Translations under genes and position numbers: made by a program | The notes under the pieces: generated by a model | What the model was told of the DNA's origin: nothing | Databases searched by the model: none | Seen by the model: only the letters and a program-made list of their open reading frames with translations | Source of the DNA: Thermoplasmata archaeon | Lineage (GTDB): Archaea > Thermoplasmatota > E2 > JACPAO01 > JAHFTW01 | DNA length: 64,000 nucleotides | Reading direction: 5' to 3' | Assembly: GCA_034667745.1 (NCBI GenBank) | Contig: JAXDQP010000062.1 | Location: 958 to 64,957 of the forward strand | Part shown: positions 4,157 through 24,058 of the stretch, piece by piece | Numbering within the stretch: position 1 is the stretch's first letter | How the letters are laid out: each line of letters opens with the position of its first letter

Positions 4157-4278
4157 TCCCGGCGTCGCCCCCGAGCGCGCTGGGCCACTTGTCCGATTTG
4201 GGACACGCGTGCCCGGCGTTGTTCCCCCGTCGCCACCACCCCTATATTGTCAGCCACGCAGTTCGGGTCCCGTCGTTC

Positions 4279-5259
4279 ATGGTGGACGTTGCCGTTGTCG
4301 GCGCCCGGGGCTACCTGGGCCGGGAATTGATGCGCTGGCTGCTCCTGCACCCCGAGGTCACCTCGGTCGCGCCCATCACGAGCGGCGCGCCGGGCACGCC
4401 CTACGGCGACTCCGTGCCCGCGTTCCGGCACCGCACCGACCTCGTCATGGCGGGGCCCGCCGCCGCGCAGGACGCCGACGTCGTGTTCCTGGCCACCGAC
4501 GGCGAGGAGGCGCGCCACCACGCCGCCAGCCTCGCCGACGCCCCGCTCCTCGTCGACCTCAGCCGCGCCCACCGCGCCCAGGCCCTCGACGGCCGGGACG
4601 GCTGGACCTACGGCCTGAGCGAGTTCCTGCCGGTCCCCAAGGGCAGCCGCCGCATCGCCAACCCCGGCTGCTACCCCACCGCGACCCTGATTGCCGCCGG
4701 CCCCGCACTGAAGGCGGGCCTCTGCGAGCCCGGCCCTCTCATCAGCGACGGCAAGAGCGGCGTCTCCGGCGCCGGCGCCACGCCGCGCGGCGACCTGCAC
4801 TACCCCGAGGCCCACGACGCCGTGCGCGCCTACAAGGTCCTCGGCCACGACCACCTGGGCGAGATCCGCGGCGCCGCGGCCCGCATCGAGGGCAAGCCTC
4901 TCGCCGCTGCCCGCCCCGTCCGCTTCACGCCCCACCTCGTGCCCATGAACCGCGGCCTCCTCGCCACCGTCTACCTGCCGGTCAGCGCCTCCGCCGAGTC
5001 CGTCAAGGCGACCTACGCGCAGCACTACGCCGGCAACCCGTTCGTGCGCACCGTCGCCGAGCCCGACACGACCCACGTGCGCGGCAGCAACTACGCCGAC
5101 GTCGCCGTCGATGTGGACCCCGCCAGCGGCCTGCTGGTGGCGCGCTGCGCCATCGACAACCTCGTCAAGGGCGGCAGCGGCGCCGCCATCCAGAACATGA
5201 ACCTCGCCCTCGGCCTCGCGCCCACGCTCGGCCTCGACCGCGTCGCGGGAGGGCCCTGA
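4279..5259 (+). CDS. argC: N-acetyl-gamma-glutamyl-phosphate reductase
   Basis: Start MVDVAVVGARGYLGREL (NAD-binding GxxGxxG), catalytic GCYPT motif; upstream in-frame extension from 4150 judged spurious. Confidence 0.85.
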   Translation: MVDVAVVGARGYLGRELMRWLLLHPEVTSVAPITSGAPGTPYGDSVPAFRHRTDLVMAGPAAAQDADVVFLATDGEEARHHAASLADAPLLVDLSRAHRAQALDGRDGWTYGLSEFLPVPKGSRRIANPGCYPTATLIAAGPALKAGLCEPGPLISDGKSGVSGAGATPRGDLHYPEAHDAVRAYKVLGHDHLGEIRGAAARIEGKPLAAARPVRFTPHLVPMNRGLLATVYLPVSASAESVKATYAQHYAGNPFVRTVAEPDTTHVRGSNYADVAVDVDPASGLLVARCAIDNLVKGGSGAAIQNMNLALGLAPTLGLDRVAGGP

Positions 5260-5323
5260 TGCTGGCCAGCCGCAGCGAAGGTGCGGGTGCGCCCCGCTCG
5301 GGCAGCGCCGCAGGCGGTGCCTG

Positions 5324-6658: not shown

Positions 6659-6662
6659 CCCC

Positions 6663-7430
6663 ATGGCCCAGGTCGTCCTCAAGCTCGGCGGCGCCGTCGT
6701 CCTCGACGCGGAGCAGGTGCGCATGGTGGCGCGCGACATCGACGCGCTCCTCGACGAGGGCCACACCCTCGTGCTGGTGCACGGCGGCGGCCCGCAGCTC
6801 GACAAGGCCCTCGCGGCGGCGGGCGAGCCTGCGTCCAAGATCGACGGCCTCCGGGTCACGAGCAAGAGCGCCGCCGGCATCGTCCAGACGGTGATGGATA
6901 GCATCGGCGCCGACCTCGCGGACCTGCTGGAGGACGAGGGCATCCAGGCCGAGCACGTGAACTCCGGCGAGGAGCGCCTCGCGGCGGTGGCAAAGAAGAT
7001 TCCGAACGGCGACCTCGGCCGCGTCGGCACCGTCCAGAAGTTCTCGGCGCGCGACCTGCCGGACGGCATCCCGGTCATCACCCCCGTCGGCTTCGACGGC
7101 AAAGGCCCCCTGAACGTCAACGCCGACGAGGGAGCGTGCGCCGTCGCCGCCGCGCTCAAGGCGGACTGGCTCGTCCTGGGCACCGACGTCTCCGCCGTAC
7201 GCGACCACCTGGGCGCCAGCATCGAGGAGCTGACCCCCGCCAAGGCGCGCGAGCTGATTGCGTCCAGCGCGGCGACCGGCGGCATGATTCCCAAGCTCAC
7301 GAGCGCCATCGCCGCCCTCGACGCTGGCGTCGGCCGCGTCCTCATCACCCGCCTGCAGCCCGGCACCCTGGCCGGCGCCATCCTCGACGGCAAGTGCGAG
7401 GGAACCCTCCTGCGCGGAGACGCCGCATGA
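6663..7430 (+). CDS. argB: acetylglutamate kinase
   Basis: 255 aa; amino-acid kinase fold motifs LKLGGAV, VHGGGPQ. Confidence 0.9.
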   Translation: MAQVVLKLGGAVVLDAEQVRMVARDIDALLDEGHTLVLVHGGGPQLDKALAAAGEPASKIDGLRVTSKSAAGIVQTVMDSIGADLADLLEDEGIQAEHVNSGEERLAAVAKKIPNGDLGRVGTVQKFSARDLPDGIPVITPVGFDGKGPLNVNADEGACAVAAALKADWLVLGTDVSAVRDHLGASIEELTPAKARELIASSAATGGMIPKLTSAIAALDAGVGRVLITRLQPGTLAGAILDGKCEGTLLRGDAA

Positions 7431-10790: not shown

Positions 10791-12223
10791 GCACGGCAGT
10801 CTGGCAGGCGCGTACCGGCTCCGGGCTGCACCCCGACCTCCTGGCCTACTCGCAGACCATCGCGGAGGACCGTCCGTTCCTGGTGCACGACCTCGCCGGC
10901 AGCAGCGCCCACGTCCTCGGCCTCGCCAAGGCGGGCCTGCTGACGAAGGACGAGGCGAAGCAGCTCCTCGCGGGCCTGCGGCTCGTGCTGCGCGACCACG
11001 AGGCCGGCACCTTCGCCCTCGACGTCGAGCTGGAGGACGTCCACATGAACGTCGAGGCCCGCCTCACCGCGCAACTCGGCGACGTGGGCCGCCGCCTGCA
11101 CACCGGGCGCTCGCGCAACGACCAGGTCGCCACCTGCATCGTCCTCTACGCGCGCGCCGGCTTGGCCCGCCTCGCCCAGGGCCTCAACGCCCTCGGCGAC
11201 GCCGTCGCCCGGCAGGCCGAGGCCAACCTGGAAACGCCGTGGGTCGCCCGCACGCACGGGATGCCCGCGCAGCCCGCCACGGTCGGCTTCCTGCTCGCCG
11301 CGCACGCGCACCGCCTCCAGGACGCGGCCAAGGCCACCCTCGCCGCGTTCGAGGCCGTCGGCGAGTCACCGCTCGGTTCCGGCGCCATCGGCGGCTCCAC
11401 GCTGCCGCTCGACCCGGCCTACACGGCGCGCCTCATGGGCCTGCGCCCGCCGCGCAGCGCGCTGCTGGCCACCGGCACCCGCGACGCCGTGCTCCTGCCG
11501 TGCCTTGCGGCGCAGCAGGCCGGCCTCGCGCTCGCCAGCCTCAGCCAGGACCTCATCGACCTGTTCAAGGAGGGCGCCCTCAAGCTGCCCCCTGGCTACA
11601 CGACGGGCTCCAGCCTGATGCCGCAGAAGCGCAACCCAGACGCGTTGGAGTTGGCGCGCGGCCGCAGCAAGGCCCTCGCAGGCCCCGCCGCCGCGGTGTC
11701 CGCCATCCTGTCGGGGCTGGGGCTGGGCTACCAGCGCGACTTCCAGCTCACCAAGCCCTACCTGGTGGCCGCCCTGGGGGACGCCGCCGCGACGGCCGAG
11801 CTTCTCGCGCCGCTCGTGGACGGGATGCAGTGCCTTCCTGCCGGCGCCGAGTGGGGCAAGCCGGGCATCGTCGCCACCGACGTCGCCGAGGCCCTCGTGC
11901 GCGCGGGCCAGCCGTTCCGCACCGCCTACGCCACCGTCGCGCAGGCGTTCGCCAAGGTGGAGTCCGGCATGACGTTCCAGGCCGCGCTTGAGGCCCAGGG
12001 CCTCTCCGCCGAGCACCTGGAGGCCGCGCTCTCGGCCTTGCAGCCGGACCCCTCCCGCCGCGCCACCGTCGGCGGCCCCGCGCCGGTCGCCGTCAAGGCC
12101 AGCCTTTCCCACTTCACTGCACAGTCCCGCGAGGTCGCCGCGCGCGTCGCCGCCGCGCAGAAGGCAGCCGAGTTGCCCCTCGACCTCCTGACCCGACCGA
12201 CCGACACCCTCCTGGAGAGCTAG
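10787..12223 (+). CDS. argH: argininosuccinate lyase
   Basis: ATG at 10787 overlaps argG stop (ATGA); fumarate-lyase signature GSSLMPQKRNPD. Confidence 0.9.
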   Translation: MSTAVWQARTGSGLHPDLLAYSQTIAEDRPFLVHDLAGSSAHVLGLAKAGLLTKDEAKQLLAGLRLVLRDHEAGTFALDVELEDVHMNVEARLTAQLGDVGRRLHTGRSRNDQVATCIVLYARAGLARLAQGLNALGDAVARQAEANLETPWVARTHGMPAQPATVGFLLAAHAHRLQDAAKATLAAFEAVGESPLGSGAIGGSTLPLDPAYTARLMGLRPPRSALLATGTRDAVLLPCLAAQQAGLALASLSQDLIDLFKEGALKLPPGYTTGSSLMPQKRNPDALELARGRSKALAGPAAAVSAILSGLGLGYQRDFQLTKPYLVAALGDAAATAELLAPLVDGMQCLPAGAEWGKPGIVATDVAEALVRAGQPFRTAYATVAQAFAKVESGMTFQAALEAQGLSAEHLEAALSALQPDPSRRATVGGPAPVAVKASLSHFTAQSREVAARVAAAQKAAELPLDLLTRPTDTLLES

Positions 12224-13237
12224 ATGACCACGACCGTCACGAAGGCCCGCGCCGCGACCGCCGCCCCCACCCCCATCCGGGCCGCCGCCGTCCCCGGCGC
12301 CCGCAGCGTCTTGGGCATGCAGGACGTCGCGCCCTACCTCGGCGAGCTGCTGGAGGACGCGATGGCGCTCAAGGCGCAGGGCCGCAAGGGGCCGCTGCCG
12401 CAGAGCCTCGCCGGCAAGGCCATCCTCATGATCTACGAGAAGAACTCGACGCGCACCCGCGTCAGCTTCGAGGTCGGCGTGCAGCGCCTGGGCGGCATCG
12501 CCATCAACCTCGACAGCCAGACCTCGCAGCTCTCGCGCGGCGAGTCGATGGAGGACACTGCACAGGTGCTGTCGCGCTACGGCCACGCGCTGGTCTACCG
12601 CGCCAACCGCCACGACTCGCTGGAGGCGCTCGCGCGCTACGCGACGGTGCCGGTCGTGAACGCGCTCACCGACAAGGAGCACCCGTGCCAGATCCTGGCC
12701 GACTGGATGACGCTGGCCGAGCACTACGGCGGCGTGGCCAAGCTCAGGGGCAAGGTGTTCTGCTACGTCGGCGACGGCAACAACATGCTCCACTCCTACC
12801 TCCTGGGCGCGGCGATGGCGGGCATGCACGTGCAGGCCGCCTGCCCCAAGGGCTACGAGCCCGACCCCGACGTCCTCGAACAGGCCAAGGCCATCGCGGC
12901 CGCCAACGGCACCCGCATCGTGGTCTTCCGCAAGCCCGAGCAGGCCCTCGACGGCGCCGACGTCGTCGCGACCGACACTTGGGTCAGCATGGGCGACGAG
13001 GCGGAGATGGTGCAGCGCCAGAAGGCGTTCGCCGGCTACACCCTCACCGAGGAGTTGCTGGCCGCCCACGCCGCGCCCGGCGCCGTCTTCCTGCACTGCC
13101 TGCCCGGCCACTGGGGCGAGGAGGCCACCTACGAACTGGCGCACGGCCCGCGCAGCCTCATCTACGACGAGGCCGAGAACCGCATGTGGGCGCAGATGGC
13201 CCTCCTGGTGCGGCTGGTCGGCGACGGGCAAGCCTAA
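12224..13237 (+). CDS. argF: ornithine carbamoyltransferase
   Basis: STRTR carbamoyl-phosphate motif, HCLP motif; starts directly after argH stop. Confidence 0.9.
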   Translation: MTTTVTKARAATAAPTPIRAAAVPGARSVLGMQDVAPYLGELLEDAMALKAQGRKGPLPQSLAGKAILMIYEKNSTRTRVSFEVGVQRLGGIAINLDSQTSQLSRGESMEDTAQVLSRYGHALVYRANRHDSLEALARYATVPVVNALTDKEHPCQILADWMTLAEHYGGVAKLRGKVFCYVGDGNNMLHSYLLGAAMAGMHVQAACPKGYEPDPDVLEQAKAIAAANGTRIVVFRKPEQALDGADVVATDTWVSMGDEAEMVQRQKAFAGYTLTEELLAAHAAPGAVFLHCLPGHWGEEATYELAHGPRSLIYDEAENRMWAQMALLVRLVGDGQA

Positions 13238-13262
13238 TCCGGCGCGGCGGGGTGGAACGCGC

Positions 13263-13895
13263 GTGCGGGTCCTGGACCTGGGGCGCATGGAATACGGCGA
13301 GTGCCTCCAGCTCCAGCACCGTCTGCGCGACGAGCGGCAGCGCGGCGAGGGCGAGGACACGCTGCTGATGGTGGAGCACCCCCCCGTGGCGACGCTGGGG
13401 CGGCGCGGCAGCCCCGACGAGGTCTTCGACAAGACGCTGCCCGTGTTCACCATCGAGCGCGGCGGCAAGGCCACTTACCACGCGCCGGGGCAACTGGTCC
13501 TCTACCCCATCGTCCACCTCGGCGAGGGGAACCGCGACGTGCGCGCCTGGGTGCAGCACCTGGAGCGCTTCGTCATCGGACTGCTGGCGGCGCACGGCAT
13601 CGCGGCGCGCATCGAGCCCGACCTGCCGGGCGTGTGGACGGGGCCGCGCAAGGTCGCGAGCATCGGCATCGCCATCCAGCACTGGGTCAGCTTCCACGGC
13701 ATCGCCGTCAACGTGACGCTGGAGCCGAAAGAGTTCGAGCGCATCGACCCCTGCGGCCTGGGCGCGCAGGTGATGACGAGCATGGCGCGCGAAGGCAGCC
13801 CAGCGACGCTTCAGGATGTGAAGCAATGGGTCGTGCAGCACGCGCCAGGGCATTTCGGTAAGTTTGTTTCAAATCGCAATCAAATCACGAATTAA
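13263..13895 (+). CDS. lipB: lipoyl(octanoyl) transferase
   Basis: 210 aa; LipB-like core (ATYHAPGQLVLYP, GIAVNV); last ~12 codons lie in an AT-rich patch. Confidence 0.8.
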   Translation: MRVLDLGRMEYGECLQLQHRLRDERQRGEGEDTLLMVEHPPVATLGRRGSPDEVFDKTLPVFTIERGGKATYHAPGQLVLYPIVHLGEGNRDVRAWVQHLERFVIGLLAAHGIAARIEPDLPGVWTGPRKVASIGIAIQHWVSFHGIAVNVTLEPKEFERIDPCGLGAQVMTSMAREGSPATLQDVKQWVVQHAPGHFGKFVSNRNQITN

Positions 13896-14079
13896 CGATT
13901 CTTAGTGATTGATTGCTCAATTGCAGTATTTTACTAAATGAATGTATAGCTCATATAGTATTTAAGATTCAAATTGACGCATGGGAAATGCGCATTGCGA
14001 TAAATTGAAGCTAAATCCAGAACAAGCGAGAACAAATCGCGCAGAAGAAAAATCTAAGGAGTGAACCTGACGGTTTCTT
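13896..14079. promoter_or_regulatory. AT-rich (~30-35% GC by eye) non-coding patch with near-palindrome CAATCAAATCAC..GTGATTGATTG; left boundary of island and upstream region of recombinase gene
   Basis: Strong compositional contrast with the surrounding high-GC DNA; palindrome read directly. Confidence 0.5.
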
Positions 14080-14104
14080 GTGGAGATTCCAGGAGTGCAG
14101 TGCA

Positions 14105-14928
14105 TGGTCCGGGTTGCGCTCTACACCCGCGTCTCGACGGAGGACCAGGCGAAGGAGGGCTTCAGCCTGGACGCCCAGCTCGACCGCCTCCGCTTCTACT
14201 CAAAGGCGCAGGGATGGGACGTCGCGGGCGAGTACGTCGACGAGGGGCACAGCGGCCGCACGACGAAGCGCCCAATGTACCAGAAGATGATGGCCGAGCG
14301 CGCCGCGTGGGATGTCCTCTTGGTCCTCAAGATGGACCGCATCCACCGCAACAGCCGCAACTTCATGGCGATGATGGACGAGCTGCGCAAGGAGCAGAAG
14401 GAGTTCGCCAGCGTCACGGAGAGCCTGGACACCGGCACCGCGATGGGCCGCTTCGTCATGGACATCATCCAGCGCATCGCGCAGCTGGAGTCGGACCAGA
14501 TTGGGGAGCGCACCTACGTCGGGATGGAGCAGAAGGCCAAGACCCGCGCCGGCAACCTGGGCAAGCCCGCGCCGTTCGGCTACCGCTACACGCCGGAGGG
14601 CCCGTTTGCCATCGTTCCAGAGGAAGCTACGTTTGTCAGGATTATGTTCGATTCATACGCGAAAGGCGAAAAAAGAGGCGATATAGCGCAAAAGTTGGTC
14701 GAAATGGGGTCGAGGACCCGGTCCGGAAAGGAGTGGGACCGCTGGGCCGTCGCTGACATTCTGCTCAACCCCACCTATGCCGGCGCCACGCAGTGGGCGG
14801 ACCAGGTGCAGCTCGACACCCACCCCGCCATCATCCCGCCGGAGCAGTTTGACGCCGTGCAGGAACGCACGAAAATGGACAGTCCGAAGGCAAACGTGAC
14901 CTTCCTGACCCGGCTCACGGTCAACTGA
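14105..14928 (+). CDS. serine recombinase (resolvase/invertase catalytic domain plus partial 'recombinase' domain; short, ~274 aa)
   Basis: N-terminus MVRVALYTRVSTEDQ (catalytic Ser in the YxRVST motif), DRIHRN; C-terminal part resembles the recombinase domain of large serine recombinases but lacks zinc ribbon and coiled coil. Confidence 0.85.
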
Positions 14929-14956
14929 AGCGACTCGGCTTGGTTAGACCATTTTG

Positions 14957-14982
14957 GTGCCATACGGGCTCCCGTATGGCAC
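14957..14982. other. perfect 26-bp palindrome GTGCCATACGGG-CT-CCCGTATGGCAC (12-2-12), candidate serine-recombinase crossover site
   Basis: Read directly; 29 bp downstream of recombinase stop; geometry matches hix/gix/res-type sites with a central dinucleotide. Confidence 0.6.
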
Positions 14983-14994
14983 TCGGAGAGAACC
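14969..14994. repeat. direct repeat copy 1 CTCCCGTATGGCACTCGGAGAGAACC (pairs with 20745-20770)
   Basis: 26 bp, 25/26 identical to the second copy, same orientation; overlaps the right half of the palindrome. Confidence 0.8.
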
Positions 14995-15083
14995 AGGGGT
15001 CCTGCCGATTGCCATACGGGGTTCCGTGCCACGTGCGGCACGACGTCCGGTATATTTGACATATTCCGGCGGCCGCGCCGGAG

Positions 15084-15090
15084 ATATTTT
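15084..15090 (+). promoter_or_regulatory. TATA-box-like element (ATATTTT) about 25-30 nt upstream of small ORF 15115
   Basis: AT-rich heptamer in GC-rich context; a second TATATTT at 15051-15057. Confidence 0.3.
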
Positions 15091-15114
15091 CTCCAGCTCG
15101 GCCGTGCAGGGGGC

Positions 15115-15207
15115 ATGGACAAGCCGTTCGGCTGGAAGGCGTGGGTCGCGTTCGGGGCCTGCTCCGTGTTTGGGCTCGGCGCCCTCGCCTGGATCTTAGT
15201 GTCCTAG
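15115..15207 (+). CDS. putative 30-aa hydrophobic peptide MDKPFGWKAWVAFGACSVFGLGALAWILVS
   Basis: ATG..TAG ORF below the ORF-track size cutoff; single predicted TM helix; TATA-like box upstream. Confidence 0.3.
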   Translation: MDKPFGWKAWVAFGACSVFGLGALAWILVS

Positions 15208-15299
15208 GCAGTGGACCGCGACGGTGACGACCCCGAGGACGGCGGTCGACGCGAGGCCGAAGGCCCAGGACGCTAGGCGGGCGACGAGCCTCTGGTTCG

Positions 15300-16255
15300 T
15301 CATTCCCACTTCCTCCAGGGCTGGAGCCAGTCGCGGAAGGTGGCGAGGCCGTAGGGGTCGCGCTTCGTCTTCTCGACCTGCTCGGCGGACCACTCGCGGA
15401 CCGCGCGGTCGGGGGCGTCCCCGGCGCCGGGCGTGGCTGCGTTGACGAGCCAACGGGTGATGCCGGAAACGATGCCCGCAGACCCGGACGCGGCCTCGAC
15501 GCCCGTGACGATGGTGTGCCGGGCCGCGTAGTCGACGCCCCCGATGAACTCGTGCCCGACCGCGCTGCCGGTGTCGGCGCTGCCAGGCCAGATGATGGGC
15601 TCGAACGGGACCTTGACCCAGTCGCCCAGGTCAAGCTGCTTCTTCTCCGTCAGTCCGTCCCATCCTACGCCTGCGCCCCAGCCGGAGCTGGAGGATTTAT
15701 CGCCCTCGAGCGGGAGATATTCTTGCGAGCTGGGTGGGGGCGGGGCGACGTCGGCGTAGTGGGCGCCTGCGGGGTCGCGGCCGAGGTCGGCGGGTGGCGC
15801 GTCGAGGAAGTCCCAGTGTCCGTCCTTGGCGTCGTCGCGCAGGCGGAGGTTCAGGTCGAGGCGCGTCTGCGCTTCGGCTGCGGCCTGCTCGGGGTCGGCG
15901 TAGGTGCCGCGCACGTAGTTGGGGCCGCGGATGAAGTCGAGGATGCCGCGCGACTGCTCCACTTGAGCGTCAATCTGCGGGAGCCACTTGGACGCGTCCT
16001 CGCTGCTGCGAACGGAGTCGGCGAGGCGGCCCGCGTTCGGGGTCCACTTGAGCAAGTCGCTCCACGAGATGCGGGACGGCGCCGGAGCGGGCCCAGGAGC
16101 GGAGGCGGGCGTGGGCTCCGGCGCAGGAGTCTCTGGCGAGGGGGAGCTCCCAGGCGCAGGAGCGGGAGGGTGTTTCTTGCGCCACCAGAGCCACCCGCCC
16201 CAGCCCGCGAGGGCGGCCGCGCCGAGGGCGGCGGCTGCGACGTCGTCGCGCTGGG
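15300..16255 (-). CDS. island protein: N-terminal TM helix, Pro-rich linker, ~250-aa C-terminal domain of unknown function; no methionine anywhere in the 318 aa, start codon unresolved
   Basis: Long in-frame ORF immediately after the stop of the 16256-16750 gene; no ATG/GTG/TTG near its 5' end, first TTG is ~70 codons in; possible non-canonical start or -1 frameshift fusion with the upstream gene. Confidence 0.45.
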
Positions 16256-16750
16256 TCAGGTGAACTTCAACTCCCCGCTGACGGCGACGCCGTTGATGCC
16301 TGCGTCGGTGCTGACGACCTGGATGGTGATGCGGTCGCCGAGGGCGGCGACAGGTTCGTTCACGGTGTCGGCTTGCGCGTCGTTGGCAGCGGCCAGGGCG
16401 GGGTGCGTCACGGTGAGCGCGGACGCCACGCCGTTGATGAAGACCGTGACGACGACGGTCTCGCCTGCGCCCAGGGCGGTGCGCAGGACGCTGCGCAACT
16501 GGCGGATGCTGCCGGCGCGCGGCATGACGTAGCTGGATACGACGCTGACGGCGCCGAAGCCGCCGAGGCTGGCGTCCGTGTAGCCCTGCGGGTGGATGTA
16601 GCAGGTGGCGGCGGCCTGGAGCAGGGCGCCGCACCCGAAGGGCTTGCCGCGCTGCGAGTTGCCGAGCTTCGGCGCAGTGACGGCCTGGTCGTCTATCTCG
16701 GCGGTCTGGATGGTCTGGCCGACGCCAGCGCCGCGCCCGATGGTGGTCAC
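16256..16750 (-). CDS. island protein, 164 aa, beta-rich, unknown function
   Basis: ATG start; overlaps next gene by 4 nt (operon-like). Confidence 0.5.
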   Translation of the reverse strand: MTTIGRGAGVGQTIQTAEIDDQAVTAPKLGNSQRGKPFGCGALLQAAATCYIHPQGYTDASLGGFGAVSVVSSYVMPRAGSIRQLRSVLRTALGAGETVVVTVFINGVASALTVTHPALAAANDAQADTVNEPVAALGDRITIQVVSTDAGINGVAVSGELKFT

Positions 16751-17073
16751 TCGTAGGCCTCCAGTTCCTCAACATAGAGGTTGCCCGAGGCGGCATCCAA
16801 GTTGACCCAGAACTCGCCTTGGATGCTCTTGCCGTCGTGCTCGTAGTCCTTCACGATGCTGCCGCCGACGGCGTCGAGGCGGACGCCGCCAGTCAGGCTG
16901 CCGCCGGGGCGGCGGCGCAGGTGCGCGGCGTTGGCCTCGTTGTTGACCACGACGAGCGCGACCCGCAGGGGGTTGAAGGGGAGAAGGAGGGTGTCGACCG
17001 TGCCGACGGCCACGTTGCCCTCGGTCTTGATGCGCACGTTGCCCTTGGCGATGAGCGCGCGGACGTCGGGCAT
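16747..17073 (-). CDS. island protein, 108 aa, unknown function
   Basis: ATG start, 4-nt overlap with downstream gene. Confidence 0.5.
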   Translation of the reverse strand: MPDVRALIAKGNVRIKTEGNVAVGTVDTLLLPFNPLRVALVVVNNEANAAHLRRRPGGSLTGGVRLDAVGGSIVKDYEHDGKSIQGEFWVNLDAASGNLYVEELEAYE

Positions 17074-17076
17074 GGC

Positions 17077-17880
17077 TTACACCTTGGTGTTGACCGGGCG
17101 GACGTAGAGGTCCACGATTTGGACCTCATTGTCGGCGGCGTCGACCAGGAAGTCCGCCGTCGGCATGACCTGGGTGCTGAAGCGCCCGAGGACGCCCAGC
17201 TGGCCCGGCTCGAACATGGCGTGCGCGACGTCGGTGCGGGTGTCGTAGCACAGCACGCCGGGGCGGTGCGTCTGGCCCGCGAAGGCGAGGCGCATGGCGA
17301 TGCCGCTCGTGCTGATGGGGAACGCGGCCAGGACGTCGTAGACGCCCTCCAGCAGCGACTCGTCGGGGGTCAGCGCGCGGTTGTTCCAGTCGTTCGCGTT
17401 CATCGCGGCGGCGGCCGTGACGGTGCGAATCCAGAACCCGCCCTTGGGGTCCACGGCCTGCACGGGGCCGTCGCAGAACTGGGTCACGATGAACTGGTCC
17501 GTGGCGGCGGCCGGGTTGTTGACGGTCTCGTAGCCGACGAGCTCGCCGGGGCGCAGGCGGATGGGCTCGCGGCGGAAGTCGTTGACGACCGGCGGGGAGC
17601 CCGGCTCGACGGTGCTGGAGAGCTTGGGGACCTCGATGGCGCTGCGCTTGTAGGTGTCGCGCAGGCTGGGGGCGACGATGCGGCAGCGGGGCTGCACGGT
17701 GGCGTCGATGCCCGCGAACACGAACGCGACGCCGGGCAGTTCGCCGGGGACGCGGTAGAAGTCGCCGCTGCTGTCGCGCTGGAACAGCGGGGACAGGGTC
17801 TCCGCGATGGCGGCGAGCGGCTGGAGCGTGGCGGCGCCGTCCTGGTTCTCGAACCAGGCGACCATGTGCTGCCGCGTCAC
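17077..17880 (-). CDS. island protein, 267 aa, beta-rich (candidate structural/capsid-like protein; speculative)
   Basis: GTG start overlapping stop of upstream 50-aa gene (GTGA); no recognisable motif. Confidence 0.5.
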   Translation of the reverse strand: MTRQHMVAWFENQDGAATLQPLAAIAETLSPLFQRDSSGDFYRVPGELPGVAFVFAGIDATVQPRCRIVAPSLRDTYKRSAIEVPKLSSTVEPGSPPVVNDFRREPIRLRPGELVGYETVNNPAAATDQFIVTQFCDGPVQAVDPKGGFWIRTVTAAAAMNANDWNNRALTPDESLLEGVYDVLAAFPISTSGIAMRLAFAGQTHRPGVLCYDTRTDVAHAMFEPGQLGVLGRFSTQVMPTADFLVDAADNEVQIVDLYVRPVNTKV

Positions 17881-18029
17881 GCGAGCACCTCCAGGGCGGC
17901 GACCACTTCAGCGGGCGCGAGGGGCTGGAGGCGGGTCAGGCCGGGGCGCTTGACGGTGCCGTCCGCGTTGTAGACGAAGCCGGTCTCGGGGTCCCAGGCC
18001 TCGCGGTCCTTGTTGAGGATGACGGGCAT
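17877..18029 (-). CDS. small island protein, 50 aa (MPVILNKDREAWDPETGFVYNADGTVKRPGL...)
   Basis: ATG..TGA ORF found by manual translation, tightly packed between neighbours (3-nt gap upstream, GTGA overlap downstream). Confidence 0.45.
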   Translation of the reverse strand: MPVILNKDREAWDPETGFVYNADGTVKRPGLTRLQPLAPAEVVAALEVLA

Positions 18030-18032
18030 GGT

Positions 18033-18329
18033 TCACCAGATTTTGCGGCCGAACACCTTCGGCGAGCGGATTTTCAGGGCGCTGGCGATGCGCTTCTGGA
18101 GGCCGCGCCCCATCACGGGGATGGCCATCTGGGCGATGTTCCGGGCGGACACGGCCTCCTTGAGGGCGGGCTTGGCGGCGTTCATGGCGCCCTGCATGTC
18201 GCCGTTCATCGCCGCCTGGACGGCAGGGGTGAACGGCTCGACGGCCTGGACGACGATGTTCGTGGCGACGGCGAGGTCGCTCCAGGACTGCTTCGGCTTG
18301 CGGGGCTTGCTGTTCTTGGGCTTGGTCAT
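18033..18329 (-). CDS. small basic island protein, 98 aa (Lys/Arg-rich N-terminus, possible nucleic-acid binding)
   Basis: MTKPKNSKPRKPKQSW..; ATG start. Confidence 0.5.
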   Translation of the reverse strand: MTKPKNSKPRKPKQSWSDLAVATNIVVQAVEPFTPAVQAAMNGDMQGAMNAAKPALKEAVSARNIAQMAIPVMGRGLQKRIASALKIRSPKVFGRKIW

Positions 18330-18351
18330 GTCAGTGGTCTCCTTGGGTGTC

Positions 18352-18457
18352 TTACTTGCCCCACGTGGGGCGGGGGGCGAGGCGGCGCTTGCACTTGTTG
18401 TAGGCGCTCTTCTTGCGGTGCAGCCCGTGGCAGTACGGGCACTTCTTCAGTTGGGCC
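18352..18457 (-). CDS. 35-aa zinc-ribbon peptide MAQLKKCPYCHGLHRKKSAYNKCKRRLAPRPTWGK
   Basis: CPxC...C spacing typical of a zinc ribbon; ORF below track cutoff, found manually. Confidence 0.4.
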
Positions 18458-18460
18458 ATG

Positions 18461-18913
18461 TCAGGCGGGTCTCCAGGTGTTTTCCTTCGTTGCGTCGTTC
18501 ATGTGGGGGACAGTGCGGAGGAACGGTTCGAGGATGGGCTTCCAGCGGGCGCCGGACTCGTAGACGCCTTGCATGGTGTCCGGGCCGAGGAAGGCCTCGA
18601 TGCGCGCCACGTTGTCCGGGCCGAAGCGCTGCGCGATGAGCGTCTTGACCTCGACCTTCGTGGCGAGGGCGGTCAGGCGCTTCTCTTCGGCCTTCTGCCA
18701 GCGCAGGGCGGCGGCGTCCGTGGGGTCCACGCCGCCGCGCATGACGCCGGGCTTCAGCAGCGCATCCAGCCGAGCGCCTAGACGCGTCTCGGCGGCTGCA
18801 ATGTCGCGGTTGACGCGGGGGATGGTGTGCAACGTGGCGATGCAGGTGTCGGTGACGCACTGGGCGAACAGGCCGATGATGAAGGCGCCGATGGTCAGCA
18901 AAACCTGGTCCAT
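18461..18913 (-). CDS. island protein, 150 aa, N-terminal hydrophobic segment (membrane-associated)
   Basis: MDQVLLTIGAFIIGLFAQCV.. hydrophobic N-terminus. Confidence 0.45.
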   Translation of the reverse strand: MDQVLLTIGAFIIGLFAQCVTDTCIATLHTIPRVNRDIAAAETRLGARLDALLKPGVMRGGVDPTDAAALRWQKAEEKRLTALATKVEVKTLIAQRFGPDNVARIEAFLGPDTMQGVYESGARWKPILEPFLRTVPHMNDATKENTWRPA

Positions 18914-19339
18914 GTTTCACAGCAAGGATTGAACAGCATTTAGCTAGCGAGGTTTTCGGCTAAACGAGCGAATACATGTGGCGAGCTTGCGCTAAACAGC
19001 GTCCCAAATGCGTTCCGTGCGTTGACCTTAAGGGGAAACGCCAGCGTTGGGGGGTTTGGGGGGCGTAGGATGGAGCACAGGATTACCTGGGCGCACAGGC
19101 GCACAAGGCGACCGGACAAGGCGGCATCCTCAGCGGCCGGACAAGGGGGAGGTATGGAGGGGGAGCACCCCTTACGGCACGGTGCTCGCTTCGCTCGCGC
19201 CCCGTCATCTTGGGCGCGCTGCTGCGCGCACCCCCGACCGAGAGGAATCCCCCGGACCCCAGCCCGGAATCGACGGCAAGGCCCCTAGGCGCGCGTCCCT
19301 TGGCTCAGAAAAGGGAAGAAGGGGGAAGAGGCGACCGGG

Positions 19340-19549
19340 CTAGGATTCGAGCCAGCGCGCGCCCTGCGGAAGGGGCTCGTTGGCGGGCCACCACCCGGCG
19401 CGGCCGTCCACGCCCGCGGCGTAGCGCACGTGGGTGTGGCTGCCGTCAGGCCAGCTGACGCGCATGGTGCGCGCCCGAGGCGTAGGGCGGGCCGGTCGGA
19501 AGTCTCGGCGGGCGAGTTGGCAGCGGCAGCTAGTCGTCTTCTTGGCCAT
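19340..19549 (-). CDS. possible small Cys-containing protein, 69 aa
   Basis: ATG ORF MAKKTTSCRCQLARRD..; weak support. Confidence 0.25.
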   Translation of the reverse strand: MAKKTTSCRCQLARRDFRPARPTPRARTMRVSWPDGSHTHVRYAAGVDGRAGWWPANEPLPQGARWLES

Positions 19550-19775
19550 CGGGGGCCTCCACTCCAGACCTAGCCGAGCTGGCGGATTTATTCCGTGCCG
19601 ACGTCGCCTTGCCCAGCTGGAGCTCCGCGAGGCGGCCCAGGCGCGAGCTCACCGAGTGATAGCTCCAGGGGCGGTCCTTGAACGCGGGGTGCTTGTAGGC
19701 GTCGAGCTTGCGGATGCGCTCGGCCAGGCTGACCGGGATGCTGATGGTGGTGCGAGGCTCCTTGCTCACCGTCAC
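19530..19775 (-). CDS. ribbon-helix-helix (CopG/Arc-like) DNA-binding protein, ~80 aa
   Basis: GTG start overlapping upstream stop (GTGA); beta-strand TTISIPVSL followed by helices LAERIRKL..; the longer 117-aa ORF is probably an over-extension. Confidence 0.45.
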   Translation of the reverse strand: MTVSKEPRTTISIPVSLAERIRKLDAYKHPAFKDRPWSYHSVSSRLGRLAELQLGKATSARNKSASSARSGVEAPDGQEDD

Positions 19776-19903
19776 ACCACCGTGGGCGCGCGGGGACAGG
19801 TGGCGTGGTAGCAGGCGCTGCACACCACGGGCTTGCTGTCGGGGTCGAGCCAGCCCGGGTGTCCGCCCCGGCAGCCAGGGCACGAGTCGCAGAAGCCGCT
19901 CAC
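19772..19903 (-). CDS. small zinc-finger protein (~43 aa: VSGFCDSCPGC...CSACYHATCP)
   Basis: Two CxxC pairs; GTG start overlapping upstream stop (GTGA). Confidence 0.4.
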   Translation of the reverse strand: MSGFCDSCPGCRGGHPGWLDPDSKPVVCSACYHATCPRAPTVV

Positions 19904-20079
19904 GCGATAGCCCCCCGGCCGATGGCGTCGAGGATGCCGGGCTTGTCGAGGAGCTTCTCGACGCGGTCGAGGAGCCGGACGCAACTGGTGAGGGTTCCTC
20001 GACACTCGACCTCGACCTGTCCGATGCGGACGGAGATGCTGTTCCCGTAGTCCGGGCGGAGCCGGGCGGCGCGGCCCAT
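19900..20079 (-). CDS. small island protein, 59 aa
   Basis: ATG at 20079 immediately after upstream stop (TGACGATG); manual translation MGRAARLRPDYGNSISVRIGQVEVECRG.. Confidence 0.4.
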   Translation of the reverse strand: MGRAARLRPDYGNSISVRIGQVEVECRGTLTSCVRLLDRVEKLLDKPGILDAIGRGAIA

Positions 20080-20081
20080 CG

Positions 20082-20249
20082 TCAGGCCCCCGGCTTGCGC
20101 CAGCTGTTGCCGCCGTGCTGGCGGCAGTCGTTGTAGCTCAGGAGCTCGTAGGTCTCCGAGTTGCGCGACCAGGTGCAGCCGCAGGGCGCGGTGACCTGCT
20201 CCTCCTTGGCGGCCTTGGGGTGGAACGCCTTGCGCAGCAGGCCCTTCAC
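20082..20249 (-). CDS. small Cys-containing island protein, 55 aa
   Basis: GTG start overlapping stop of 20246 gene (GTGA); VKGLLRKAFHPKAAKEEQVTAPCGCTW.. Confidence 0.35.
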   Translation of the reverse strand: MKGLLRKAFHPKAAKEEQVTAPCGCTWSRNSETYELLSYNDCRQHGGNSWRKPGA

Positions 20250-20719
20250 TGCGACGCCCCCGGCACAGGGAGGTCCGAGTCCGAGTCCGTCAGGGGTCGT
20301 GCGACGCTCACGACTGTGAGGTGGAACGTCTTCTTCAGGCCCCGGCCTTCGCTGTGGATATCCAGGACGACGTTGCCGCTCCAGTCGGGGCCGCTGCGCA
20401 CGATGACGTCACGCAGGGAGACGGCCGCCGGGAGGCTCAGGATTTCCCAGACGCTCTCACGGGCGGTGCCTACTTCCAGGAAGGTCGCCACCGCGTACTT
20501 GGTGACGGCCTTCGAGCTCACGATGTTCCCGTTGTCGTCGTGGTTGGCGATGGTGTGCGGGATGCCCTGGGGGCCGTAGCCCTTCACGTCCACCAGGACG
20601 ACGCGCTGGGGCGTGCTCTCCGGCTGGAAGAACGTGGGCTTCGCCTTGTCGGGGAGGTTCAGGCCCGCGAGCCACGCGCCACGGTCAAGGGTCTTCTGTT
20701 CAGGGGTCGTCTCTTGCAT
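20246..20719 (-). CDS. island protein, ~157 aa (ATG at 20719; alternative GTG at 20758 lies inside the direct repeat)
   Basis: MQETTPEQKTLDRGAWLAGLNLP..; unknown function. Confidence 0.5.
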   Translation of the reverse strand: MQETTPEQKTLDRGAWLAGLNLPDKAKPTFFQPESTPQRVVLVDVKGYGPQGIPHTIANHDDNGNIVSSKAVTKYAVATFLEVGTARESVWEILSLPAAVSLRDVIVRSGPDWSGNVVLDIHSEGRGLKKTFHLTVVSVARPLTDSDSDLPVPGASQ

Positions 20720-20744
20720 ACGGTTCGCTCCAAATTGGCTCGAA

Positions 20745-20770
20745 CTCCCGTATGGCACTCGAAGAGAACC
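20745..20770. repeat. direct repeat copy 2 CTCCCGTATGGCACTCGAAGAGAACC
   Basis: 25/26 identity with 14969-14994, same orientation; the sequence to its left does not match the left palindrome half. Confidence 0.8.
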
Positions 20771-20792
20771 GCATTTTTCCCGTAGATTTTGC

Positions 20793-21176
20793 TCATTTTT
20801 GTGCAGAACTGGCCAAAATCATCAGGATGTCCGCTTCCAACTGGCTCAGCAGCCGGGTGAGGAACAGGTAGACCAAGGTGAGGAGGCCGGTGAGCGCGCC
20901 GGCCACGCGAACGGCGGCGGTGACGACCGGGGTTGCCTGTGAGAGTCCGGGGACGAAGTTGGCCGCCAGGCCGACGACGGTGCCGGCGAAGCCCAGGTAG
21001 AGCAGCACGAGGGCGCCGGTGCGGACGCGGTCCCAGCGGCGCAGGCTTGCGGCGCGCTCGTGCAGGAGGCTGTCGCGGCCGCGGCTGCCCAGCTCGAGGG
21101 CCTGCAGGATGTGCCCATAGCGGCTGTGCAATAGCCACTGGAGGCGGGACTCGTAGGGGTACACGCGGCCGGCAAG
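20793..21176 (-). CDS. small membrane protein (two predicted TM helices); start uncertain (TTG/GTG)
   Basis: C-terminal part GALVLLYLGFAGTVVGLAANFV..VVTAAVRVAGALTGLLTLVYLFL hydrophobic; no internal ATG. Confidence 0.4.
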   Translation of the reverse strand, partial: LAGRVYPYESRLQWLLHSRYGHILQALELGSRGRDSLLHERAASLRRWDRVRTGALVLLYLGFAGTVVGLAANFVPGLSQATPVVTAAVRVAGALTGLLTLVYLFLTRLLSQLEADILMILASSAQK

Positions 21177-21399
21177 GGGGGCGCGGAGATGGGGTTGCCG
21201 CTCCGTTGCGTCGGGAGCAAAAGGGGGAGAAGGGGGAAGATTGGGGTGGTCACGCCAGGCGTTCGGTGTATTCCCATTCGCTGGTGACCACACGGATCCA
21301 GACGTAGCTGTCCATGCGATGCCTCCCATTTCCTTGGGGCGCCGACGGCCTCCCAGCCGTGCGACAGAGTCGCGGGGCGTCCCGAGGGAAACCGGACTA

Positions 21400-21596
21400 T
21401 GCGTTGCGTGATTTAAGGCGTTCCAAGCGAAGCGACGGTGCCGATGCAACACCACCCAGAAATGTTCCCGTGCAGTTATAAGATTTATAAATAAATGGGA
21501 GCAACTTTGCATCAAAGCATTTGATTCGCGCAAAAGCGCAACGACACGACTGATTCTCAATCAGCGAAATTCAATCTGAATCCGCAAATCTGTTCA
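21400..21596. promoter_or_regulatory. AT-rich patch with TTTATTTATAAATC TATA-like box on the minus strand; right boundary of island
   Basis: Composition contrast; TATA-like sequence read directly. Confidence 0.45.
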
Positions 21597-21863
21597 TCAG
21601 TCGAGCAGCGTGAACAGGACGTCATCCTGCCCCACGTCGAACACGCCCAGCCGCGCGCCCGCGTCGAGCCAGCCGTGCGCGTAGTTGACCTGCGCGAACG
21701 CGTTCACGAAGTCGCCCTGGGCGTGGAAGTGCTGCGCGTCGGCGTAGTAGCGCTTGGCCATGTCGAGGAAGTTGTCGGCGATCTTGGCCGCGAAGGACTT
21801 CGGCGGCGCCACGACCTTGACCTTCTCGAAGGCGCGCCGCGTGGTGTCGAGGTACTTCCCCAT
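21597..21863 (-). CDS. small conserved archaeal protein, 88 aa (DUF357-like guess)
   Basis: MGKYLDTTRRAFEKVKVV..YYADAQHFHAQGDFVNAFAQVNYAHGWLDAGARLG; 29-nt gap after the HerA-like gene, same strand. Confidence 0.5.
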   Translation of the reverse strand: MGKYLDTTRRAFEKVKVVAPPKSFAAKIADNFLDMAKRYYADAQHFHAQGDFVNAFAQVNYAHGWLDAGARLGVFDVGQDDVLFTLLD

Positions 21864-21892
21864 CTTCTCCGCGGAAATCTCCCTCTGCGGGG

Positions 21893-23992
21893 TCAACGCC
21901 ACAGCCGGCGCAAGGTGGAGCGGGTCTTTTGCCGTTCCTGCTGCAGCAGGCGGTGGTAGGTGCAGCCCGCCTGCTCGGGGCAGCGGATGCAGGCCGGTCC
22001 CTCCGGCAGGCAGGCGTTCTCCGCGATCTCCAGCAGCAGCCGCAGGCGGGCGTCGGGGTCGCGGTGGTGTGACGCCTCGAGGTCGCCGACGATGGCGACG
22101 GTGCGCGCGGGGTCCTGGTCTGGCCCCACGAGGCCGATGCGGGAGGCGACGCGGTGGATGTCCTTGGCGTCCCCGGCGGTCCAGCTCTTGCGGACCTTGT
22201 GGGCGAGGAACGCGTCGTCCGGGATGAGGCGGCGCGGGGAGCGGGGCAGCGTCTGGAACTCGACCTCGGGCGCCTGGACCGGGAGGACCGGCTTGGGGCG
22301 CGCGGGCGGCGCGATGGCCGGGGCAGCGGGCGAGGCAGCGGGAGCCGGTGGGACGGGCGCAGGCGGGGGTTGGAACGCGCTGGGCGGCGTCCACACCGGC
22401 GCCACGGGCTTCGGCGGGTCAACACTCGGGGCCGGGTTCAGGGGCGCGCGGGGCGCAGGGGGCGGCAGAACGGGCGCCTGGGGCGCTTCGCCATCGTCCT
22501 CCTCTTCGTCCTCGTCCGACTCCTGGTGCAGCACGGACACGGAGCGGCCGCCGTGGCGCGTCAGGCGGGGGCGCACCGACACGAAGACCGGCTGCGTGAG
22601 GCCGCCACCCGCCACGAGGGCCTCCCCCACGGCGAGGCGCTGGATTTCATCGGCGACCTCCGCCGAGATGCCCTCGACGCTCTGGACGATGGCCTTGAGG
22701 TCATTCGGGTTCGTGACCTTCAGCACGACCTGGGTGTTGCACTGCGACAGCACGTTCTTGTCGATCTTCGCCGGGCGCTGGCTCACGATGACGAGGCCCA
22801 TGCCGAATTTGCGGCCCTCCGAGGCCACGGTGCGGATGATGGCTCCGCTCACGGCGTTGCCCACGTTCCTTTCCGGGCAGAAGTTGTGCGCCTCCTCCAC
22901 CACGAGGATGTGCGCGGGAATCTCGCCGCGCTTGCGCGCCTCCCAGAGCATGTTCGCGATTCGCGTGACGACGATCTCCTGGATGTCGGGGTTGACACCC
23001 TTGAGGTTCACGATGGTGCACTGGCCCGGCGCGACCAGCTCCTTGACGGGGGTGCCGCGGATGTCGAAGACCTTCGTGGACTCCAGGACCTCGAGGGCGT
23101 TGAGGACGTTCCACTTGGCGTTCGATTTGTTGCGCGCGACGCCGTCCATGATGTCGCGCAGCGTGTAGGCGGGGAGATGCTCCTTGATCTCCTTGATGGC
23201 CTGGTAGAGCACGCCCACCTGGCCGCCGGAGAGCTTGCCGCCCAGCAGGTCCACGATGTCGCGGCCCTCCAGGTTCATGCCCTCCAGCACCAGGCGCTGC
23301 GCTTCGGGGTTGAGCTGGACGTCGAGGGCGTACTCCTTGACCTGCTTGGCGAACGACTTGGGCTTCACCTTGTAGCGCGCCATCGCCTCCAGCTCGCCCT
23401 CGTCGAGGTTGGGGCTCCGCAGGGAGCCGTACTCGCCGTGCGGGTCGAGGATGACCAGCGGCACGTTGGCCTTGATGAGCTCCTCCAGGATGACCGCGAC
23501 GGTGTAGGATTTGCCGGCGCCGGTCTTCGCCAGCACCGAGAGGTGCTTCTGCGCCACCGTGTCCATGGAGAGCGCGACGGGAATCTTGCTGCCCTTGACG
23601 AAGCCGAGGTAGGCGCCGCCCTCCGCCGACTGCTCCAGCCCCAGCACGGTCGTGACGAGGCGGTCGTCGGCGTTGTAGACCGGCACCCCGGCGCGGAACG
23701 GCGTGCGCGGCGTCTGGATGCGGCCCTGCTGGTCCTGGTAGCCGATGACGCGCACGCCGGCCGAGAGCTGGTCCTCGGCATCGGCGGCCAGCCCCTCGGG
23801 AATCGCGACGGCCTGCTCGTAGCTCAGGCTGCTGCGCCGCAGGACGGCGTCGACCTGCGCCAGGACGCGGTGGCCCTCGGACTCCACCTCGACGTAGTCC
23901 AGGCGCTTGAGCCCGGAGTCCCCCACGGCGATGTCGAACGCGGTGCTCGACACGTTGCCGTAGATGATGCCGACCTGGCGGCGCAGGGCCAT
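21893..23992 (-). CDS. HerA-like (DUF87/FtsK-HerA superfamily) ATPase with N-terminal HAS-barrel-like region, Pro-rich linker and C-terminal Cys-cluster domain
   Basis: Walker A LAKTGAGKS, Walker B HILVVEEAH; acidic patch DEDEEEDDGE then ~80 aa Pro-rich; C-terminus ..ACLPEGPACIRCPEQAGC.. Confidence 0.8.
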   Translation of the reverse strand: MALRRQVGIIYGNVSSTAFDIAVGDSGLKRLDYVEVESEGHRVLAQVDAVLRRSSLSYEQAVAIPEGLAADAEDQLSAGVRVIGYQDQQGRIQTPRTPFRAGVPVYNADDRLVTTVLGLEQSAEGGAYLGFVKGSKIPVALSMDTVAQKHLSVLAKTGAGKSYTVAVILEELIKANVPLVILDPHGEYGSLRSPNLDEGELEAMARYKVKPKSFAKQVKEYALDVQLNPEAQRLVLEGMNLEGRDIVDLLGGKLSGGQVGVLYQAIKEIKEHLPAYTLRDIMDGVARNKSNAKWNVLNALEVLESTKVFDIRGTPVKELVAPGQCTIVNLKGVNPDIQEIVVTRIANMLWEARKRGEIPAHILVVEEAHNFCPERNVGNAVSGAIIRTVASEGRKFGMGLVIVSQRPAKIDKNVLSQCNTQVVLKVTNPNDLKAIVQSVEGISAEVADEIQRLAVGEALVAGGGLTQPVFVSVRPRLTRHGGRSVSVLHQESDEDEEEDDGEAPQAPVLPPPAPRAPLNPAPSVDPPKPVAPVWTPPSAFQPPPAPVPPAPAASPAAPAIAPPARPKPVLPVQAPEVEFQTLPRSPRRLIPDDAFLAHKVRKSWTAGDAKDIHRVASRIGLVGPDQDPARTVAIVGDLEASHHRDPDARLRLLLEIAENACLPEGPACIRCPEQAGCTYHRLLQQERQKTRSTLRRLWR

Positions 23993-24058
23993 CAGGAGAC
24001 CACTCCTGGAGGTCCTATATCAGGCCGCCCAAATGGACCTAGGAGGGCCGCCGGGAAC

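Follow-up and report, generated by a model that had tools for sequence, protein, structure and literature searches.

A probable small provirus at the palindromic site of a chromosomal serine recombinase in Thermoplasmata

We analysed a 64,000-nucleotide stretch of contig JAXDQP010000062.1 (assembly GCA_034667745.1, positions 958 to 64,957) from a Thermoplasmata archaeon, hereafter the window, which contains a serine recombinase gene (rec) and, immediately downstream of it, a 5776-bp inserted element. The window has a G+C content of ~70%. To the left of rec lies an arginine-biosynthesis operon, whose last gene encodes ornithine carbamoyltransferase (OTCase), followed by LipB. To the right of position 20770 are a small membrane-protein gene (minus strand), DUF357 and a HerA-type ATPase. 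The insertion point between these two sets of host genes is intergenic and lies between convergent genes.

Starting 28 nt past the final base of the rec stop codon is a flawless 12-2-12 palindrome, GTGCCATACGGG CT CCCGTATGGCAC. An earlier note on this DNA, made from the sequence alone, had reported this palindrome together with a direct repeat 5.8 kb away, and both are confirmed. The two 26-nt copies, CTCCCGTATGGCACTCGGAGAGAACC and CTCCCGTATGGCACTCGAAGAGAACC, are identical at 25 of 26 positions, lie in direct orientation and are 5776 bp apart from start to start. The 26-mer CTCCCGTATGGCACTCGRAGAGAACC has these two matches only in the 64 kb window when up to three mismatches are allowed, and none in 100 shuffles of the sequence (chance expectation, none). 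In the first copy, everything past the central CT is element sequence. The second copy is preceded by AATTGGCTCGAA, which is unrelated to the left half of the palindrome, and host flank from 20796 rightward aligns both with a related contig (L001, described below) and with genomes in which the site is empty. The second copy had been proposed to be a hybrid, attL-like site; its unrelated left arm joined to a host right half supports this.

Comparison with relatives places the palindrome and rec in the host chromosome. We scanned GTDB genomes and JGI metagenomes with rec and compared the best 80 of 260 genomic and the best 80 of 479 metagenomic loci. At least 20 related species-level Thermoplasmatota genomes share the gene order OTCase-LipB-rec-membrane gene-DUF357-HerA and do not contain the 5.8 kb segment. 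Homologues of the membrane gene directly follow rec and the palindrome in L085, L087, L091-L097, L100 and L103. Most empty loci carry a recognisable 12-2-12 palindrome (zero to three mismatches) ~14-220 nt past the rec stop codon, and in the closest relatives this distance is ~30 nt. When 14971-20746 is removed in silico, joining 14970 to 20747, the product is collinear with the empty sites from end to end, and the equivalent join in L001 is collinear as well. These comparisons show that the segment is an insertion at an exact position and that the recombinase is a host gene. They support the proposal that the 5.8 kb is an excisable unit and bear out the claim that the recombinase lies outside it, since rec is a conserved host gene in element-free genomes. 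At two of the relatives, the gap between LipB and rec is wider than the usual ~0.2 kb (~7 kb in L102, 2817-10001; ~1.5 kb in L086, 495-1995), and these gaps may hold other insertions upstream of rec.

In the element-free genomes, at least 20 in number, rec is syntenic and 62-92% identical to the window protein, and its identity follows that of LipB (r = 0.76, 20 loci). Because synteny is kept and divergence runs in step with LipB, we conclude that rec is a vertically inherited chromosomal gene. There are no circular contigs among the rec loci. An exact-protein look-up of rec returned only the contig of the window itself and no population variant.

The rec protein matches the Pfam domains Resolvase (PF00239, 4e-36) and Recombinase (PF07508, 3e-18), which together cover residues 12-264 of the 282-aa open reading frame (ORF). 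The Resolvase domain is complete (profile positions 1-141 of 145), and inspection of the protein reveals the catalytic motifs YTRVS (Arg, Ser) and MDRIHR (Asp, Arg, Arg). The catalytic domain of TP901-1 integrase is the nearest solved structure (8.9e-29). The match to the PHROG family phrog_95 (‘integrase’) spans profile positions 86-356 of 651, in the first half only; the protein ends at residue 274 and contains neither a zinc-ribbon nor a coiled-coil domain. The Recombinase domain of large serine integrases binds the inner portion of each half-site, and a two-domain enzyme would fit a compact 26-bp site. G+C content drops markedly at 14600-14720, in the Recombinase-domain part of the gene, relative to the rest of the gene and the genome.

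We identified a second occupied site on a 29.8 kb contig (L001), which encodes a homologue of the element gene g8 and has the same flanking genes as the window. The window flanks (11001-14929 and 20796-24024) are collinear with L001 at 83-86% identity (blastn), and the two rec proteins are 92% identical. The element, by comparison, aligns to L001 in inverted orientation (window 15567-20656) with a nucleotide identity of ~70%. The rec-side junction in L001 reads GTGCCATTCAGG-TT-CCCCAACGACCG, the distal junction reads GTGCCATTCGGG-TT-CCCGTATGGCAC, and 5574 bp separate the two TT dinucleotides. Both insertions thus split the palindrome at its central dinucleotide, of which a copy stands in direct order at each junction (CT/CT in the window, TT/TT in L001), and the block of identity ends at the central dinucleotide in the window and 3 bp beyond it in L001. 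The end of the element beside the small membrane genes (the a-end) carries a good copy of the host half-site, and the promoter-proximal b-end is degenerate. Comparison of the attP regions of the window and L001 by eye indicates that the arm of each element matches the half-site variant of its own host. Given the opposite orientations, the different dinucleotides and the greater divergence of the elements than of their hosts, we conclude that these are separate integration events. No recombinase match was found in the L001 element.

Further occupied sites were sought by script among the 160 rec loci. A strict search for split palindromes returned the window pair and one candidate, shared by L131 and L037, and nothing more; looser versions of the search were dominated by chance matches. 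We rejected the L131/L037 candidate, the distal copy of which falls within a 529-aa ORF.

The association of rec with a palindrome extends well beyond the close relatives. A 12-2-12 palindrome with at most two mismatches lies within 250 nt after the rec stop codon at 61 of 157 loci, as compared with 3.6% of random 260-nt segments, and the half-site consensus is (G)TNANNTWCGGN. The centres of 34 distinct sites are CT (15 sites), AG (14), TT (2), AC (1), GT (1) and AA (1), none of the 34 being self-complementary. Across 35 distinct sites, dyad symmetry is kept through two-sided changes at 9 of 12 positions and the 2-bp spacer is fixed. The covariation score for sites that had been selected for palindromy is 0.52, versus 0.12 for shuffled sites and 0.08-0.14 for slid registers. 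A-A or T-T pairs make up 16 of the 41 arm mismatches. Dyad symmetry of this kind fits a dimeric DNA-binding protein, and an RNA hairpin would fit too; we favour a recombination site because the 2-nt spacer is invariant and two insertions fall at the centre. The earlier suggestion that the palindrome is a serine-recombinase crossover site is supported, as empty sites are intact after rec and both insertions split the centre. Its suggested likeness to res and hix sites holds for site geometry and for nothing beyond it.

The rec family and its palindrome are widespread in Thermoplasmatota, including on a complete chromosome (CP070836.1). In L009-L164 (for example L075 10001-11665, L127 and L020), the palindrome has the form GTTACCTTCGGW CT/AG WCCGAAGGTAAC as its consensus and lies ~11 nt after the stop codon. 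At ~50 loci from distant clades, housekeeping genes (SRP19, ribosomal protein S8e; named by eye) lie upstream. At 47 loci, a second rec paralogue (~250 aa) starts ~37 nt past the first stop codon, and the palindrome lies between the tandem genes. In L131 (5919-5944; also in L037), a palindrome, GTGTCCATCGGT TT ACCGTTAGACAC, is found ~15 nt upstream of the rec start codon, so the position of the site relative to rec is not fixed. A second conserved inverted repeat, TGAAAGCAA-N3-6-TTGCTTTCA, overlaps the rec stop codon and the first ~25 nt after it (L005, L085-L089, L001); its loop length is variable and it is weaker in the window (14925-14950).

We consider 14971-20746 to be probably a small provirus that was integrated at the centre of the palindrome by the neighbouring host-encoded serine recombinase and that is probably excisable. 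This suggests that the element borrows the host recombinase to enter and leave the chromosome. From the sequence, we infer that rec is the catalyst, that crossover takes place at CT (14969-14970 at junction site 1) and that excision continues. The host attB would be GTGCCATACGGG-CT-CCCGTATGGCAC followed by TCGAAGAGAACC, with the palindrome as the cognate site of rec. The element attP would be AATTGGCTCGAA-CT-CCCGTATGGCAC followed by TCGGAGAGAACC, one arm copying the host half-site and the other being degenerate. Staggered cutting of attB and attP at the central CT, followed by strand exchange, would give the two observed junctions: P-CT-P′, again a palindrome, at site 1, and X-CT-P′, a hybrid, at site 2.

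Because both junctions retain CT in direct order, the same enzyme could reverse the reaction, recombining site 1 with site 2 to release a 5776-bp circle and restore attB. The restored attB junction is predicted to read ...TTTTGGTGCCATACGGGCTCCCGTATGGCACTCGAAGAGAACCGCATTTTTCCC... and the circle junction ...CCAAATTGGCTCGAACTCCCGTATGGCACTCGGAGAGAACCAGGGGTCC.... Since the half-sites are symmetric, the orientation of insertion would be set by the non-palindromic central dinucleotide alone. The earlier note had expected excision rather than inversion from the direct orientation of the repeats, and the direct central dinucleotides in both genomes agree with this. More tentatively, and at slightly less than an even chance, rec and its 26-bp palindrome may be an ancient, vertically inherited module that is a docking platform for recombinase-less viruses, with the central dinucleotide, fast-changing but never self-complementary, acting as a lock on entry and orientation.

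The element operon starts at an ATG (20719-20717, minus strand) 25 nt inside the crossover and second repeat copy, and it ends near 15196, beside the palindrome and convergent with rec. Third-position GC in the element ORFs is like that of the host, and the only ORFs longer than 170 aa are g8 (jelly-roll) and g11 (membrane/Pro-rich). Tests of the element ORFs against Pfam and PHROG gave no match and no recombinase, although a very divergent enzyme could escape them. Foldseek comparison of a g8 model with BFVD returned weak jelly-roll matches only. Neither blastn of 13900-21600 against 50,697 phage records nor a scan of IMG/VR with g8 revealed a relative. The element is most likely a small virus, and otherwise a plasmid-like replicon.

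We identified 31 homologues of g8 (267-aa query), mostly on contigs of ~1-9 kb, many of them 5-6 kb long. Three contigs, L004 (6.2 kb), L166 (6.0 kb) and L168 (8.8 kb; 8832 bp), have terminal overlaps of 27-30 bp, as for circular genomes, and the element family is mobile. More distant members differ in replication module from the window element: L169 (8414 bp) encodes a protein-primed family B DNA polymerase, and L168 encodes a 950-aa protein without a known domain.

At the a-end, we detected an additional degenerate half-site (TTGCCATACGGG, 15009-15020) that is absent from the earlier note and belongs to a second dyad (Table 1) whose centre lies 52 bp from that of site 1. This dyad is a candidate accessory binding site for the recombinase. 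Nearby are an inverted repeat, GTGCC...GGCAC (15026-15041), and an AT-rich palindromic box that may be a bidirectional archaeal TATA region or promoter. In the circular form, this box would lie ~100 nt upstream of the operon start codon. Integration would part the operon from the box and place host flank before it, and the structural genes would then perhaps be silenced, a speculative point. On the minus strand at 20717-20758, the half-site CATACGG can pair with CCGTATG, 24 nt downstream, which holds the g1 start codon; a GGAG ribosome-binding motif sits in the loop. This pairing may form a translational control hairpin confined to junction site 2. A search of 13800-21700 against Rfam matched no family.

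Table 1. Features of the rec locus and element in the window, and empty sites in relatives
Feature	Position	Strand	Description
rec	14104..14928	+	Chromosomal serine recombinase, 274 aa from ATG; Pfam Resolvase and Recombinase
Junction site 1	14957..14982	.	Perfect 12-2-12 palindrome; left half host, right half element a-end half-site
Direct repeat copy 1	14969..14994	+	Central CT, right half-site and 12 nt more (TCGGAGAGAACC)
Inserted element	14971..20746	-	5776 bp; absent from syntenic relatives; ~14 small minus-strand ORFs
Degenerate second dyad	15009..15034	.	TTGCCATACGGG GT TCCGTGCCACGT; within element; by inspection
AT-rich palindromic box	15047..15069	.	CCGGTATATTTGACATATTCCGG; element a-end; by inspection
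Small membrane ORF	15115-15207	+	Sole plus-strand ORF of element
35-aa membrane ORF	15196-15303	-	Last ORF of element operon
g8	17077..17880	-	Jelly-roll protein, 262-267 aa; candidate capsid protein; signature gene of element family
g1	20246-20719	-	First ORF of element operon
Junction site 2, hybrid	20733..20758	.	Degenerate element b-end arm AATTGGCTCGAA, CT (20745-20746), host right half-site CCCGTATGGCAC
Direct repeat copy 2	20745..20770	+	CT, host right half-site and host flank TCGAAGAGAACC
Host membrane-protein gene	20793..21131	-	Right host flank; convergent with rec in empty arrangement
Empty site, L005			GTGCCAAACGGG CT CCCGTATGGCAC
Empty site, L086			GTGCCATACGGG AC CCCGTATGGCAC
Empty site, L089			GTGCCATACGGG TT CCCGTATGGCAC
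Empty site, L088			GTGCCATATGGG AG CCCGTATGGCAC
Empty sites, more distant lineages			TTGATATTCGGA CT ACCGAATGTCAA and similar

Other explanations of the locus can be weighed against these data. It is unlikely that another recombinase, such as a helper tyrosine integrase or XerA, integrated the element in trans, with the 26 bp serving as a classical att core and rec as a bystander. A direct repeat of 25/26 bp around an insert is indeed the usual signature of a tyrosine integrase, and a relative of the element that lies beside a PAC2 gene with no rec in view (L167) implies that the family has other routes. However, the two independent insertions lose identity at the dyad centre (window) or 3 bp past it (L001); they target a covarying 12-2-12 dyad that accompanies rec across the phylum; and no tyrosine recombinase was detected in the element with Pfam or PHROG. 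We consider it improbable that the palindrome is mainly a terminator or operator hairpin, where the element arrived via microhomology or homologous recombination at 24 bp that are similar by chance. The location between convergent genes, the strong fold (predicted RNA hairpin of -30.5 kcal/mol, z = -3.2, for the 72-nt palindrome region) and the oligo-T runs that follow the site in the host flank would all suit a hairpin, and 24-26 bp of identity could permit rare homology-driven integration. Yet 2 nt are too few for a viable hairpin loop, and an RNA would give no cause to conserve so strict a spacer; as a terminator, the separate conserved hairpin over the rec stop codon is the more plausible candidate. 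The A-A and T-T mismatches within the arms also argue against an RNA structure, as do two independent insertions that end their homology at the dyad centre with arms that match the half-site variant of their own host.

The remaining two explanations are far less probable still. In one, the segment is an invertible cassette like those of Gin, Hin and Cin, with its recombinase outside, and the window and L001 represent two switch states. The segment is in fact inverted between the two genomes, rec abuts it from outside as gin does beside the Mu G segment, and the operon starts so close to the junction that orientation would change its promoter context. The central dinucleotides are nevertheless direct, and antiparallel pairing (CT with AG, TT with AA) would be mismatched; mismatched overhangs block inversion by serine recombinases, as such pairs are not religated. 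Moreover, the segment is absent from ~20 relatives, and its 70% identity against 83-86% for the flanks points to separate acquisitions. The other explanation, which we find hardly credible, holds that rec belongs to a provirus comprising rec and the 5.8 kb, so that ‘empty’ sites are decayed remnants. It draws on L003, L004 and L166, in which a serine recombinase gene is convergent with the structural operon, as in the window. Those resolvases, though, share no more than 25-32% identity with rec, confined to part of the N-terminal domain. Furthermore, at least 20 species keep rec, the palindrome and the membrane gene in synteny without any virus gene, and rec divergence tracks LipB; the L001 element is inverted relative to rec; and in other clades rec sits among housekeeping genes.

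Integration of the element by rec must itself be set against a number of observations that weigh on the other side. The excision junction, the circular form and an empty variant from the same population are all unseen, a single contig carries this rec, and a scan of IMG/VR with the predicted circle junction found no match. Independent occupied sites number two only. The second attP arm resembles the half-site at ~2/12 positions in the window and 7/12 in L001, and binding of a recombinase dimer to it is uncertain because of this poor likeness. The identical arm (24-26 bp) runs 12 nt (TCGRAGAGAACC) beyond the palindrome, which exceeds what a serine recombinase needs. Such long identical arms are more typical of tyrosine-integrase att cores; possible origins of the arm include an extended recognition site and gene conversion between the two repeat copies, besides other mechanisms. 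Phage serine integrases control directionality through a zinc-ribbon and coiled-coil, which rec lacks. The palindrome may also serve as a terminator, as an added function.

Relatives of the element bear on the same question. The free relatives L003, L004 and L166 encode a different resolvase of their own (247-256 aa), and no 12-2-12 site comparable to that of the host was found beside these genes. In L167, the element (1415-7100; g8 47% identical) lies downstream of a PAC2 proteasome-chaperone gene on a contig without rec. It is linearised at the same a-end/b-end point, and its flanks differ, bearing imperfect CCTAGNCCAAG repeats and a hairpin of 14-bp arms. The element seems to have taken another integration route, and the element family has more than one integration strategy.

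The principle that integration can exploit a resident recombinase is known; what would be new here is that the enzyme is a serine recombinase, encoded by an archaeal host. Das, Martinez, Midonet and Barre reportedly described in 2013 how integrative mobile elements exploiting Xer (IMEX) use Xer at dif, including CTX-phi, VGJ-phi and TLC-phi of Vibrio and the gonococcal genetic island. Like IMEX, the element described here has no recombinase of its own, sits at the cognate site of a conserved chromosomal recombinase, carries an attP that mimics the host site (one good arm, one degenerate) and regenerates the host site at one junction. It differs in its archaeal host, in the enzyme proposed, a serine recombinase rather than the tyrosine recombinases XerC/D or XerA, and in its site, a 12-2-12 dyad with a 2-bp crossover that is not dif-like, dif being 11-6-11. 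Integrons also pair a resident recombinase (intI) with a primary site alongside it (attI), at which recombinase-less circular elements insert, and there too the inserted operon begins just inside the junction (25 nt here) with host flank upstream. Integrons, however, use a tyrosine recombinase, a folded single-stranded attC and cassette arrays, whereas the insert here is single and virus-sized.

Among serine recombinases, the phage large serine integrases (phiC31, Bxb1, TP901-1, A118) share with rec a TP901-1-type catalytic domain and a Recombinase domain, a site that adjoins the recombinase gene and, as inferred for rec, crossover at a central non-palindromic dinucleotide that fixes polarity. 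Unlike these integrases, rec is 274 aa long without zinc-ribbon or coiled-coil and is encoded on the chromosome outside the element, its attB is perfectly palindromic, and the sequence common to attP and attB is a 24-nt arm (25/26 nt) rather than the dinucleotide alone. Staphylococcal cassette chromosome (SCC) elements that lack ccr, and pseudo-SCC cassettes, are mobilised in trans by CcrAB serine recombinases. They likewise combine a recombinase-less element, a serine recombinase in trans, a fixed chromosomal site and short direct repeats. The Ccr proteins, in contrast, are full-length large serine recombinases encoded on another mobile cassette, whereas rec is a vertically inherited host gene, and the SCC target lies within rlmH. 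The Mu Gin/gix, P1 Cin/cix and Salmonella Hin/hix systems resemble the locus in having the recombinase gene just outside the segment and 26-bp dyads with 12-bp halves and a 2-bp centre. They differ in that the central dinucleotides here are direct, the segment is acquired and absent from relatives, and rec carries a Recombinase domain in place of a short C-terminal helix-turn-helix. In the skin/SpoIVCA and fdxN/XisF elements, the recombinase is internal and a gene is interrupted, whereas here the recombinase is outside and the insertion intergenic.

Elsewhere in the window, G+C falls to 0.61-0.67 across 34000-41500, a stretch that includes tRNA-Gln (35628-35700) and has tRNA-Val (41315-41388) at its end; a further integrated element or an island may lie here.

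In our search of the literature, which was incomplete in coverage, no paper described a Thermoplasmatota serine recombinase that is encoded by the host and has its own site. If the interpretation proposed here is true, no serine-recombinase integration system would have been described in archaea before, nor any virus that exploits a host-encoded serine recombinase. Parasitism of host recombinases, known for tyrosine enzymes and in bacteria, would then include serine enzymes and archaea, and the module would be a serine-recombinase counterpart of Xer/dif with its IMEX, or of the integron attI. A short two-domain recombinase with a minimal symmetric 26-bp site, in which polarity is given by the dinucleotide, would also offer an appealing and simple tool for genome engineering. 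Proviruses in Thermoplasmatota could be integrase-less and would thus be missed by provirus finders that rely on integrases. Finally, the cellular role of a module found throughout the phylum would become a defined question, with dimer resolution, a landing pad for mobile elements and defence as its possible answers.

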